Part shown: positions 29,300-62,770 of the stretch, piece by piece
How positions within the stretch are numbered: the first letter of the stretch is position 1
How the letters are laid out: each line of letters opens with the position of its first letter
Assembly: GCA_964016885.1 (NCBI GenBank)
Contig: OZ024745.1
Location: forward strand, 58,714,001 to 58,778,000
Reading direction: 5' to 3'
DNA from: Eledone cirrhosa
Lineage: Eukaryota
DNA length: 64,000 nucleotides
Notes under the pieces: model-generated
Seen by the model: only the letters and a program-made list of their open reading frames with translations
What the model was told of the DNA's origin: nothing
Database searches by the model: none
Program-made: the position numbers and the translations under genes

Positions 29300-29477
29300 A
29301 TCAGATAGGGTTTGGTAAAAACCATCTAGACCATAACCCACCAGAGTACTCGATACTTGGGGTACTAGATTGGGTAATATGAAAAGGTTCAGGACCCCGA
29401 TGGCTGAGGGCCGGCCGTGTCGACAGCTAGATCCGAACTAAGGCGGCTTTAGTTTGGATCTAGCTGTCGAAACGGCT
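29300..29477 (-). mobile_element. Diverged family C member ending in a long hairpin
   Basis: Tail homologous to 30551-30655; hairpin GACAGCTAGATCCGAACTAAGG/CTTTAGTTTGGATCTAGCTGTC followed by GAAACGGC. Confidence 0.7.
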
Positions 29478-30145
29478 TCTCTAATACCCCGTCCATTATC
29501 ACACCCCTAGATTCCCATCGCTTTCTCTTCATCATTAGCAGCTTCTCTTACTACTAATACATGCCGATACACACCCTTATATTAATATACTTTTACTCAT
29601 AGCTTCATACTTACATGCACACACACTCTTTTACTCACACATACACACACATTTCTTCTTAGCTTCGTACGGACCTATAATAACACACACACACACACAC
29701 ACACACACACACACACACACACACACACACACACACACACACACACACACACACACACACACACACACACACACACACAATCACACACACACACACTCAT
29801 GCTTACGCACGTGCTCAAGTATAGCTCTTTTTACAAAACGTTTTTTTTTTCCATTTCAGGTAGACGCGCGCCATCATCCACTTTTCAAAAAAAAAACAAA
29901 TCATACACAAAACGCCAGCACCAACACTTTTGCAAGAGATGTCCACATGAATGGACCTGTTATTTTTATCTAAAGACATTTTTTCCAATTCCATTCCGCC
30001 CGTCCCCTCAATCAATTTTATTTCCCATTCTTTCTTCTGATGAAATACTAGCGTCCGAAACGTTAAGACCCTCTTCCTGCTATATCAAGCGTTAACCTGA
30101 TATATACTGTACTGATTGTGTTGTTATTTCTGTTTACCTTTTACA
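29478..30145 (+). mobile_element. Family J PLE-like 3' UTR/pLTR with hammerhead motif at 30033-30068
   Basis: TCTT-CTGATGA-AATACTAGCGTCC-GAAA-CG-TT-AAGA (stem II eroded). Downstream sequence related to 32230-32326 (+) and about 43415-43490 (-). Confidence 0.65.
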
Positions 30146-30548
30146 TATATATATATATATATATGACTACAAGAATTTCTGCAACACGAATTGGCGCGAA
30201 ATTTATAGTACACATTCAACAACCAACCAAATCTTAATACCTCTGGAACCACTTTTTTCACATAAAACAGGAAGAATTTCCAAAACTGATCAGATTAGAG
30301 CAAACATCACGAGCGCTCTATCTCAAAATTATTTTTGAAAAGCATAAGAAATGCGCAACCGGTAAAAACTTAAAACTAAAACTGAATACTAACTAATACT
30401 TATTACTAATTTATACTTATTCCTAATTGAACTATTTTTCACTGGGAAAAATTTGTCAGCATTTTCTTTTCCTTTTACTAATATATCACAAATCGTGTGT
30501 TACACCTCTATTTTTTTAAATATATATATATATATATATATATATATA

Positions 30549-30745
30549 TAACGAAGGAAATGTGGTAAGGAACCAGGTGGACCATAACGCACCAAAGTAC
30601 TCATTACTTAGGGTAGTAGAGTGGGTAATAGGAACGAGTAGGACCCCGACGGCTGAGCTCAAGCCGTTTCGACGGCTAATTCTGGATAGTCCAGAATTAG
30701 CCGTCGAAACGGCTTGAGCTCAGCCGTCGGGGTCCTACTCGTTCC
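30549..30745 (-). mobile_element. Family C fold-back element
   Basis: Perfect palindrome 30631-30745 with 3-nt loop at 30687-30689, tail 30549-30630, (TA)n on both sides. Further family C pieces at 31163-31240 and 43062-43150. Confidence 0.88.
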
Positions 30746-31387
30746 TATATATATATAAATATATATATATATATATATATATATATATATATATATATAT
30801 ATATATCGATGGTTATCAGTTCGTATACAATAGGGAGAGACGATTATTGACATGTCTGCAATGTCTCTTCGTCTGAGACTGAGAAAATAAACGTTCTATG
30901 ATATATTCCTCATTTCCCCGCGGCATACCAACTCAAACAAACTCACGAACTTCAATGCATAAGTTTTGTCGTTGCGAACCCAGCTATCAATTGTTTCAGA
31001 CTTGGTATCCTCAACGTCTGTTTGCATGTAAATAAATAAATAAATGAATAAATATATAAATATATATATATATATATATATATATATATATATATATATA
31101 TATATATATATATATATATAGAGAGAGAGAGAGAGAGAGAGAGAGAGAGAGAGAGAGAGAGAAACGAGTAGGACCCCGACGGCTGAGCTCAAGCCGTTTC
31201 GACGGATAATTATGGTTCCTTACCACATTTCCTTCGTTATATGTATATATATATATACATATATATACATATATATATATACATATATATATATACATAT
31301 GTATATATACATATATACATATATATATATATATATATATACATATATATATACATATATATATATATACATATATATATATATATA

Positions 31388-31750
31388 TTTCGTTTCTGAA
31401 TTTGTTTAGCAAGATTCTTTATCTGAAATCGTGTGTTGAAACCGATATTGTTATACTTTGGGAGGGTCATGTTGCCAAAATGGCGTAGGATAGAAGAAAG
31501 GAAAGGCACAGAAACGAAGAAAGGATTCCCCAGTCACTGAAGAGGTCACAGAGTGTGTGACGAAAGGACTATGACTATATATATAAACAACTATCTGGTT
31601 GTGGAACCAACCAACCAACCAGAAATTTATAAGTTTGTAGATTTGTAAATTTGTAAATTTATAAATTTATAAATATATAATAAATTGAAGTGAAAGCAAC
31701 TGGTGCGTGTGTTTCTTATTGGCAACATGACCCTCCCAAAGTATAACAAT
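31388..31750 (+). mobile_element. Family D pLTR element, copy 1
   Basis: Minus-strand tail plus end (31388-31478) joined to a plus-strand pLTR (31477-31750). Near-identical to 49503-50050; mini copy at 16260-16304. Confidence 0.88.
31532..31576 (+). ncRNA. Minimal type I hammerhead ribozyme (intact copy also about 49734-49778, minus strand)
   Basis: AGTCA-CTGAAGA-G-GTCACA-GAGTG-TGTGAC-GAAA-GGAC-TA|TGACT: perfect 5-bp stem I, 6-bp stem II. Confidence 0.85.
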
Positions 31751-60624: not shown

Positions 60625-60703
60625 ATGTATGTATGTATGTATGTATGTATGTATGTATGTATGTATGTATGTATGTATGTATGTATGTATGTATGTATGT
60701 ATG

Positions 60704-61384
60704 TCAGGTCACCAGTTGGTGCTACTGGTAACATGTCTCCCAGTACAACCTGTCTCATGGTCGGGTCGTTGGCGACTAAACTGGCAACCCCACCAAGGTT
60801 TCTTGGTGAGGAGGGTGACTTTGGACATCCTGCAGGACTAAAAACAAAACCTGTCAAAGGGCAAAGGAGCCCTTAAGAGTCAATGGCCATCCAAAATCCC
60901 CGGGAGAGATGACCCCTTAGCCTTTGTCAAGGCAGAATTCTAGGAGAAGGAAAACTGATATAACACCTGCAACCCTGATGGTATCCAATGATGTTGACTT
61001 GTTCTTCTTTTTGGTAAATATCATCTTGGTTAAGAGAGTGGGACTGGCTTTGTGCAGTGCCTTTGCTCACTATAAAAGCTTCACGGCACAGGCATTGCTT
61101 TATATCTGGAGATCTCTCTGCACTTGTCGTTACATGGTACCATGGGCCCAGCACTATGTGTCAATAAGTGTAGTGTTTGTACCAGAGTTTTCAAGTCGCT
61201 GGCTGGACTAAAAAGTCACACTCGTTCAGCGCATCAGTAAGGGTTCTCCTACATGGATATAAAGTAGTGGCCGTACTCGAAAACGACTTGGCAGCCACCA
61301 TGTATGTATGTATGTATGTATGTATGTATGTATGTATGTATGTATGTATGTATGTATGTATGTATGTATGTATGTATGTATGTA
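60704..61384 (+). mobile_element. Short internally deleted RTE derivative (5' UTR plus terminal C2H2 finger plus (TGTA)n tail)
   Basis: RTE 5'-UTR-like CTAGGAGAAGGAAAACT at about 60940. 61163-61240 translates NKCSVCTRVFKSLAGLKSHTRSAHQ*. 3' stem-loop, then (TGTA)n. Confidence 0.65.
60729..60784 (+). ncRNA. Degenerate HDV-like ribozyme
   Basis: P1 CATG/CATG(GTC), P2 CCAGT/ACTGG, P3 ACA/TCT (one mismatch), L3 ACCTG pairing with GG (P1.1), P4 TCG-TTGG-CGA, J4/2 CTAA. Confidence 0.5.
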
Positions 61385-61391
61385 TTATGTA

Positions 61392-61645
61392 TTACGATGT
61401 TCAGAGAATGGCATTGGCCCCGTGCAAAGCCTTTCCTCATTAAAAAAAAAGCTTCAAGTAACAATTGATATGTGACATTTTTTGGCGATGCATGGCATGG
61501 CTGGCCATAGGCAAGTCCTTAGCATGACTAAAATTCCACATCCGTGATGCACATGCTTAAGTATCAAGTGATGGAATTACTCGAAATCGAGATGTAGTCA
61601 TCATCATGTATGTATGTATGTATGTATGTATGTATGTATGTATGC
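61392..61645 (+). mobile_element. Second, more decayed RTE 3' end with (TGTA)n tail
   Basis: KSLA*LKFHIRDAHA* parallels the finger at 61163; 3' UTR CTCGAAATCGAG resembles CTCGAAAACGAC. Confidence 0.6.
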
Positions 61646-62581
61646 ATGTATGTATACATATATGAAGGCATGCATGCATGTATGTATATATGTATGTATA
61701 TATGTATGTGTATGTGTGTATGTATGCACGTATGTATGTATGTATGTATGTATGTATGTATATATGTGTGTCTGCATGTGTGTGTATATTATGCATGTAT
61801 GTATTATTTATTACATTACTGTAAGAATGTCATATTGGTTACAGATGTTTCACTAATCGATAAAATCAAGACATATAACTCTTAGATATTCAGACTCCAT
61901 CATTTGCAATTAGGTTCGTAAATGCAAATGGCGGTGGAGTTTAAAGACATGAGAGCTATATATCTTGATATCCCATCTAGTGAGACAATTTTAGCCAATA
62001 TGCCAATCTTGCAGCAGTGTAATAGATTATATATATTATAAGCACTTCTCATAGATTAAGTGCTTTCTCACTTTTGTGTATCCTATATACAAGTACAATA
62101 TACATATTTATATACACGAGACTCCGCTGAAAGGTTCATAGACTGGCTATGATGGAGTGATGCTAGAGCTGTGAAATCTTGCATGCATTAATATCAACGC
62201 TTCTTATTAATGACTGCATTGTTTGTTCCCAGAAACTATGTTGAAAAATAAACCTCATTTGGTCATTCCATGAAAGCATATGAATTTTTTTCAACCGACG
62301 CGCGCGCGCGTGTGTGTGTGTGTGTGTGTGTGTGTGTGTGTGTGTGTGTGTGTGTGTGTGTGTGTGTGTGTGTGTGTGTGTAGAAATCCGTAGATGAATG
62401 ATCAGGAAAAAACGGTGCTCAATCTGTTGCAAGAGAACTTATTTAGTATAAACAAACTTTCATACACGTAACATATATATATATATATATATATGAGTGT
62501 GTATATATATATATATATATATATAGATAGATAGATAGAGAGAGAGAGAGAGAGAGAGAGAGAGAGAGAGAGAGAGAGATA

Positions 62582-62770
62582 TGCAGTTCACGAGTTGTGT
62601 CGGGGAGTTAAGCACACTTAAAATAGTACTCAATACATTGGTAGAGTATAGGCATTTTTTTTTATTTTATATAGAAATGACTTCTACAGGACTAGAACCG
62701 TACTAGAACCGTTTCCTGATAATTTCCTACAAATGAAACAGTTCTAGTTCTGTAGAAGACATTTCTATAA
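62582..62770 (-). mobile_element. Family K miniature fold-back element
   Basis: Arms about 62670-62715 and 62735-62769. The centre reads CTGATAA-TTT-CCTAC-AAAT-GAAA-CAG-TT (hammerhead remnant). Tail on the left. Confidence 0.6.

Follow-up and report, generated by a model that had tools for sequence, protein, structure and literature searches.

Inverted copies of Penelope-like elements in Eledone cirrhosa probably break where their template RNA begins, in a minority of cases at the predicted hammerhead cut

Penelope-Like Elements of the Window and Their Inverted Copies

The window analysed here is a stretch of 64,000 nucleotides (nt) of the Eledone cirrhosa genome (assembly GCA_964016885.1, contig OZ024745.1, positions 58,714,001 to 58,778,000, forward strand), which is rich in (TA)n runs and in short repeats arranged head to head. 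As judged from their coding capacity, these repeats are Penelope-like elements and short derivatives of them, since adjacent open reading frames (ORFs) encode a reverse transcriptase (RT) followed by a GIY-YIG domain. The RVT_1 profile was matched by families A (E = 2e-12) and D (9e-05) and the GIY-YIG profile by D (6e-05), E (2e-04), H (4e-04) and, weakly, A (0.17), while a CxxC motif is visible upstream of GIY-YIG in D, E and A; family C was classed with the RT/GIY-YIG elements through the resemblance of its ORF end to that of H. The organization that recurs is a pseudo-long terminal repeat (pLTR), an optional tail and an adjoining inverted, 5'-truncated copy, of which we recorded 339 inversions across seven families. 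A (TA)3 motif lies within 12 nt of both outer flanks in 148 of 314 inversions, a raw count. The labels C, D, E, H and K are those of a first-pass annotation of the window, transferred by coordinate, and A, G, I, J, L and M were newly assigned and may differ from the ones used there. The ORFs of family E span about 1,100 codons and contain an in-frame Asn-rich segment (L203, L209), like rotifer Penelope elements (PMC3846280).

Exact motifs near the 3' end of each pLTR were searched across the 3.0-Gb assembly and the loci were taken in positional order; the search returned 1,083 matches for K, 28,697 for D, 14,880 for E, 1,829 for H, 16,111 for C, 43,818 for G, 3,531 for A, 9,310 for I and 30,981 for J. 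A further 200 stretches were retrieved for junction mapping, with priority given to inverted pairs. To place the arm ends, the stretches were compared by BLAST with natural copies left unaltered, the calls were merged, and duplicates were removed on the basis of their context; the resulting positions are accurate to a few bases, and arms below 24 nt are missed by the tiling. The 30 best-hit D loci, which are biased toward long copies, were excluded from every D count, and loci L381-L500 served as a fresh replication set. The sampling motif sits downstream of the ribozyme in D, E, H, G and A; in C and K it spans the cut, and copies starting at the cut are invisible in those two samples. Positions are counted from hammerhead C3 = 0.

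Architecture of the Hammerheads

A motif scan followed by manual pairing revealed the core boxes, helices I-III and NUH triplet of type I hammerheads, with U4 variants in A and J. They share the core and an extra base after A9 with the minimal type I hammerheads described by Cervera and de la Pena (2014; PMC4209133), as well as the short palindromic helix III (D, E, H, G, A, I, L and M) and the U3-A8 covariation (C and L). In contrast to those ribozymes, helix III of family C measures 6 bp and its stem-loop II about 55 nt (loci L153, L229 and L232). The likely start site discussed below lies inside this loop, so that most C copies carry half a ribozyme, and among the first 100 long copies listed the core is U3-A8 in 57 and a C3/A8 mismatch in 43. 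Copies with only the 3' half make up about 89% of the family, and their cleavage in trans is conceivable. Single-sequence folding recovered the full hammerhead only for D, and partly for A and H; the best 150 of 211 rows of an Rfam scan of the window held microRNA-type matches to simple repeats and no hammerhead.

In turn, family I consists of a 466-nt unit repeated in tandem with a type I hammerhead in each unit, as in a non-LTR retrozyme. Its inverted arms are multimers whose arrays reach at least 11 units per arm among the matches listed and at least 4 + 15 units in one case. Head-to-head multimer arrays of this family occur at G000:C1:69.578-69.587 Mb, with two fixed 3' ends about 60 nt apart.

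Inversion Ends Relative to the Hammerhead

The first-pass annotation had proposed that inversion breakpoints cluster on the hammerhead, citing five junctions of the window, and most of these were located correctly. The inverted arm of E (50203-50399, the reverse complement of 52046-52242) starts 3 nt past the predicted cut of a hammerhead with C3 at 52009 and H17 at 52042. The right arm of a D copy begins at 49842 (+4), within the CUGANGA box, and the K arms break at the hammerhead, the left one reaching GAAA (62715, +19 to +22) and the right one beginning at 62713 (-3). The left arm of H does end within the box (+3), yet at 49126 and not at 49115, a shift of 11 nt. Family C folds at the position described (30686/30687, that is +47/+44, and similarly in the copy at about 29444), but these short copies are devoid of the 5' half of the ribozyme, which is visible only in long genomic copies. 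The partner ends had been left unweighed: they lie 1.6 kb upstream (-1592) within the ORF in E, at -60 behind a T-run in D and at about -66 in H. Moreover, C and K could hardly break anywhere but in the hammerhead zone (an end lies there in 71 of 73 C and 34 of 34 K inversions sampled), and under a uniform pLTR null each inversion of D, E or H has a 35-57% chance that one of its two ends hits the hammerhead. Therefore, the junctions of the window alone give no signal beyond chance.

The larger sample of D, E, H, G and A gave no enrichment on the hammerhead, the very outcome that the annotation had set against its own proposal. Only 41 of 255 ends within the pLTR range fall there, compared with an expectation of 65.8 from a survival null (P(<=) = 7e-5) and of 58.5 from a uniform one (P(<=) = 0.004), and the direction of this depletion is the same with pads of 3, 10 and 20 nt. 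When the hammerhead is compared with its downstream flank alone, no difference is seen (41 vs. 40.4). The ribozyme interior is strongly depleted (8 ends vs. 31.1 expected), the predicted cut ± 4 nt is close to expectation (12 vs. 10.8), and the 100 nt upstream of the hammerhead received 131 of the 255 ends against 81.5 expected. The fresh loci repeat this distribution, with 10 of 94 ends on the hammerhead (20.7 expected) and 41 of 94 upstream of it (24.6 expected). The excess at the 5' edge in D (9 vs. 1.8) and those at the cut in E and H, observed in the first sample, were not repeated in the fresh loci. As for family I, among about 10 distinct inversions one end lies at the cut and no cluster is apparent; stalling on the folded ribozyme, as had been suggested, is not seen, its arms traversing several hammerheads in tandem.

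Hot Spots and the Likely Transcription Start

We found that the ends gather at family-specific spots. In D, E, H, G and A these precede the hammerhead by about 30-110 nt; in C, K and J they coincide with it or lie within it. Taken per 20-nt window, the ends are densest at -79..-60 in D, -63..-44 in E, -53..-34 in A, -94..-75 in G, -33..-14 in H, +41..+60 in C (115 of 148 ends) and -10..+9 in K (52 of 68); in J, 13 of 49 ends fall within -8..0. The C junctions cited by the first-pass annotation belong to this larger class, not to the cut-site class described below. Ends of non-inverted copies fall on the same spots (30 of 44 in K, 6 of 19 in D). The clustering at the ribozyme in C, K and J reflects the fact that the majority of copies start at it: no more than 9 of 113 K arms extend past -9, and for the C ribozyme the genome holds 1,753 matches to the 5' half compared with 16,111 to the 3' part.

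The sequence around these spots contains promoter-like motifs. Long K copies of two diverged subfamilies retain a TATA box at -36, 30 nt ahead of the hot spot; an initiator-like word occurs at +39 in C, and D and E share a YY1-type word at the hot spot with NRF1/ETS-type words upstream. Homopolymer A/T stutter is present at 5 junctions. The hot spots are likely transcription starts; support for this assignment is broadly firm in K, C, D and E and weak in H, G and A. A promoter internal to the pLTR was reported for Penelope (PMC2377424, PMC8557442, PMC3846280). An extra G before the start, as a cap would leave, occurs in a handful of J and K ends, which are too few and are confounded by the partner arm.

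Copies Starting at the Predicted Cut and U6 Fusions

The cut-site counts cover families C, D and E. In C the predicted cut is at +86, and we counted, genome-wide, tail-bearing arms whose two upstream bases differ from the family. Arms starting at +86 gave 458 matches compared with 56 at +81 and 67 at +90, the two control positions. Inspection of 30 such loci revealed 22 real ends (16 inverted, 6 not) and 8 indels; cut-start ends amount to about 336 in all, a 5.5-fold and at least 3.7-fold excess over the controls, or, as a rough estimate, one tail arm in twenty. Perfect mini fold-backs occur at the C cut as well. Thus, a minority of inversions begins exactly at the predicted hammerhead cut, as shown for C. 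The matches in D and E number 15 and 13, each for one sub-variant and without matched controls, and on inspection 5 of 15 in D and 8 of the 12 readable ones in E proved real.

The first hint of a further class came from the C cut-site locus L612, which has a U6 3' end on both arms. A search for U6 3' ends returned 93 matches, about 30 of them in one tandem array with a spacing of about 1.8 kb (G000:C19:31.78-31.84 Mb), likely a U6 gene cluster. In seven of the 28 places among the first 30 loci, the five-U end of U6 is followed with no intervening base by the nucleotide next to a hammerhead GTC or GTA triplet, twice in C, once in K (assigned through three other copies), three times in L and once in M (loci L612, L631, L634, L638, L639, L648 and L650). 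The five-U 3' end is intact at all seven, one arm of L612 having one base changed in the U-run, and Rfam confirmed U6 in two of four loci scanned. L612 and L648 possess the same fusion on both inverted arms, which implies that the fusion preceded the inversion. The remaining places are various, including two where U6 is joined to the start of a tRNA-type SINE (short interspersed nuclear element). Ten other U6 ends (L621, L626, L628, L630, L640-L642 and L644-L646) join one short repeat at points that vary, mostly within a few bases of one another's position, and this repeat has no hammerhead triplet before it.

Hammerhead cleavage leaves a 5'-OH end. RtcB was described to ligate the U6 cyclic phosphate to 5'-OH RNA (PMC6789731), and in combination these properties make the fusions point to cleavage in vivo. 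A template jump to U6 at the end of the RNA would look alike; either way, an RNA beginning at the cut is needed. A literature search, confined largely to the main text of open-access papers, turned up no earlier description of U6 joined to RNA at the cut of a hammerhead.

Origin of the Two Arms

The tail is present on one arm in 255 of the 339 inversions, on both in 7 and on neither in 77, whereas 53 with both would be expected if the arms were independent. In clearly unequal pairs it is on the shorter arm in 118 cases and on the longer one in 38. Microhomology was found at 150 of 339 junctions, and the paired arms are discordant at 270 comparisons of polymorphic columns against 1,075 expected for independent templates, which suggests that the arms are usually copied from a shared template. 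Together with the two-strand cleavage and the two start sites demonstrated in vitro (PMC11167929), this favours two priming events on one RNA followed by end-to-end joining, which is the simplest reading.

According to this scheme, the element's protein would cut both strands of an AT-rich target, as the in vitro work (PMC11167929) and the (TA)n flanks imply, and each DNA end would prime reverse transcription on the same RNA, one at the end of the pLTR and the other at the tail end 40-120 nt further 3'. In the inversions recorded, the two arms do have family variants in common, and the tail is found on one arm only, usually the shorter one. Each cDNA would stop by random truncation or by run-off at the RNA 5' end, sometimes with stutter, and the two cDNA 3' ends would be joined head to head, as the microhomology suggests. 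The ribozyme would matter only where prior cutting had created a new RNA 5' end, and U6 RNA was likely also joined to these 5'-OH ends before they were copied. We consider it probable that the breakpoints concentrate at the likely beginning of the template RNA, in most cases a family-specific likely start in the pLTR and, for a minority in C, the predicted cut.

Several observations weigh against this reading. We infer the transcription start from motifs and copy boundaries, and in H, G and A the hot zones are broad and the promoter motifs weak. Pooled short-arm ends show a slight excess at the cut (10 vs. 5.7, P = 0.06; fresh loci 2 vs. 1.6) and at the hammerhead's 5' edge (22 vs. 13.4, P = 0.013, driven by D; fresh loci 3 vs. 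3.6). The 38 inversions with a tail on the longer arm, together with 119 of 339 that are near-symmetric, fit a single-strand snap-back too, and the concordance of the arms could come partly from gene conversion. The loci stem mostly from the initial part of a single contig. The K and J hot spots also come after an AG that borders helix I on its 5' side, with a T-rich tract before the AG in some subfamilies, so they might be a 3' splice acceptor or another processing site, the more so as the intron of Drosophila Penelope ends at the equivalent place (PMC4209133). We regard this last explanation as very doubtful: the short copies have no common upstream exon, a search for spliced copies yielded 5 internal deletions in all loci, none of them at a common AG, K keeps its TATA box 30 nt upstream, and the C ends include bases preceding its AG.

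The first-pass annotation attributed the inversions to stalling on the folded hammerhead, or ending at its cut, followed by a template switch. The predicted cut does serve as a breakpoint for a minority class in C, where copies starting at it are in excess; the U6 fusions located at the cut in C, K, L and M, one of the two family I junctions of the window and the weak pooled excess of short-arm ends at the cut also speak for the proposal. As a general cause, however, it is quite improbable, given the depletion of the hammerhead in five families, the few cut-site matches in D and E, and the family I arms that pass several hammerheads; furthermore, Naiads without canonical hammerheads still have inverted copies (PMC8557442), and hammerhead mutants left insertion in vitro unaffected (PMC11167929). 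Self-priming was proposed by Arkhipova (2013; PMC3846280): a single cDNA would reach the RNA 5' end and fold back, with the endonuclease trimming one end. It agrees with the near-symmetric inversions, with the minimal hairpin junctions at the D start, with the perfect mini fold-backs at the C cut and with the variants common to both arms, and it may account for the near-symmetric cases. Yet a copied-back strand cannot pass the 3' start of the first cDNA, and the tail would then be expected on the longer arm, the opposite of what prevails (P ~1e-10); an identical D junction was also found with the tail on either arm, and overall this route seems unlikely, with a modest chance of being right. 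That the clusters were inherited from a few palindromic master copies, or arose by recombination or conversion between arms after insertion, is highly improbable. One composite D junction does recur in several best-hit loci and paired arms are more alike than unrelated copies, but in the positional-order samples hardly any two loci agree in their end pair and spacer, one junction type has its tail on either side, and the same boundary is met in different subfamilies.

Relation to Known Systems

The elements and their inverted structure are already known; what is real here and absent from the literature searched is the cut-site minority, the fusions with U6 and the restriction of the tail to one arm. 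Penelope-like elements encoding the endonuclease (Craig, 2021, PMC8557442; Arkhipova, 2013, PMC3846280) have the same RT followed by GIY-YIG, the same pLTR with a hammerhead and promoter motifs, the head-to-head copy, the tail at one end and the (TA)n targets. The parts of these papers that are cited describe the structure and propose self-priming, and contain no map of junctions against the ribozyme or start and no count of tails per arm. For Anolis Poseidon in vitro (Frangieh, 2024, PMC11167929), cutting and extension of both strands, AT-rich targets and two reverse-transcription start sites that bracket the tail were reported, with cleavage unneeded for insertion. The same study found no RNA-seq reads starting or ending at the cut, whereas here C copies begin at the predicted cut and U6 fusions occur in four families. 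In L1 twin priming (PMC4476161), two priming events from two target strands likewise produce an inversion, but both arms described here duplicate the 3' end of the element rather than turning its 5' part around; a literature search of the same scope as above revealed no report on twin priming in Penelope-like elements. In U6/L1 chimeras, explained by RtcB ligation (Moldovan, 2019, PMC6789731) or template switching (PMC4476161), an intact five-U U6 3' end is similarly joined to a 5'-truncated retroelement RNA and retrotransposed. Here, in contrast, U6 is attached to a Penelope-type or non-autonomous RNA, and instead of a random break the attachment point is the nucleotide that follows the hammerhead NUH triplet.

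The origin of the Penelope inverted repeats and hammerhead cutting in vivo are called open in the cited parts of three papers (PMC8557442, PMC4209133, PMC11167929). With the junctions mapped, two kinds of RNA 5' end can be told apart, the likely start and the cut, the former being dominant, and from the one-sided tail a prediction follows directly for the in vitro system already in use. The cut-start copies and the U6 fusions are likely a fossil record of hammerheads cutting in living cells, and the fusions provide a sequence-only cleavage test applicable to any animal genome. For the wider proposition, a record at nucleotide resolution in which ribozymes cut, a host ligase adds U6 to the 5'-OH, and a dimeric retroelement protein copies one RNA twice, from its two start sites, and joins the cDNAs head to head, the case seems to us evenly poised. 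If it is true, counts of cut-start copies would rank ribozyme activity by family from DNA alone.

Features of the Window

The features that bear on the inversions are listed in Table 1.

Table 1. Penelope-like elements, derivatives and fold-backs in the window (positions in window coordinates, signed numbers relative to C3)
Feature	Position	Strand	Remarks
Family A near-full-length Penelope-like element (minus)	3227..6206	.	Inverted pLTR arm from 5909 (-147)
Family J fold-back	6320..6833	.	Ends -223/-164; U4A-type core
Family I (466-nt tandem retrozyme) fold-back	16346..16957	.	Ends +40 and +30; +30 is the predicted cut
Family I fold-back	28491..29216	.	Ends -73/-31; hammerhead C3 28935
Diverged family C fold-back	29307..29476	.	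Both arms begin at the C hot spot
Family C fold-back	30553..30745	.	Arms +47/+44, the hot spot within loop II of a U3:A8-type hammerhead; 5' half absent
Family D insertion	31392..31748	.	Short inverted tail arm 31392-31478; microhomology join to a copy starting at the -60 hot spot
Family M copy	46232-46455		Hammerhead with very long, partly microsatellite stem-loop II
Family H short arm	49031..49126	-	Ends at +3 within the core
Family H long arm with tail	49127..49420	+	Hammerhead C3 49193
Family D long arm with tail	49503..49841	-	5' end at -60 hot spot, homopolymer stutter; hammerhead C3 49774
Family D short arm, tail-less	49842..50045	+	Begins at +4 within the CUGANGA box
Family E inverted arm	50203..50399	-	Begins 3 nt past the predicted cut; 17-nt duplication next (50400-50416)
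Family E 5'-truncated Penelope-like element	50417..52290	+	RT end, GIY-YIG, pLTR with hammerhead (C3 52009, H17 52042), tail
Family G fold-back	57016..57337	.	Ends about -35/-31; stuttered spacer
Family K fold-back	62584..62768	.	Minus tail arm to 62715, plus arm from 62713; C3 62716, G8A in copy

Fragments of a non-LTR reverse transcriptase, which we presume to be RTE-like, lie at 26944-27639 (minus strand) of the window and at L153:1553-2722, also adjoining (TA)n. An RTE-type ORF adjoining a C copy represents a separate insertion. Further inverted elements are located at 16979-17345, 37290-39784 and 53790-54067, and an abundant SINE-like repeat has many copies between 7764 and 59062, including an inverted pair at 54256-55068.

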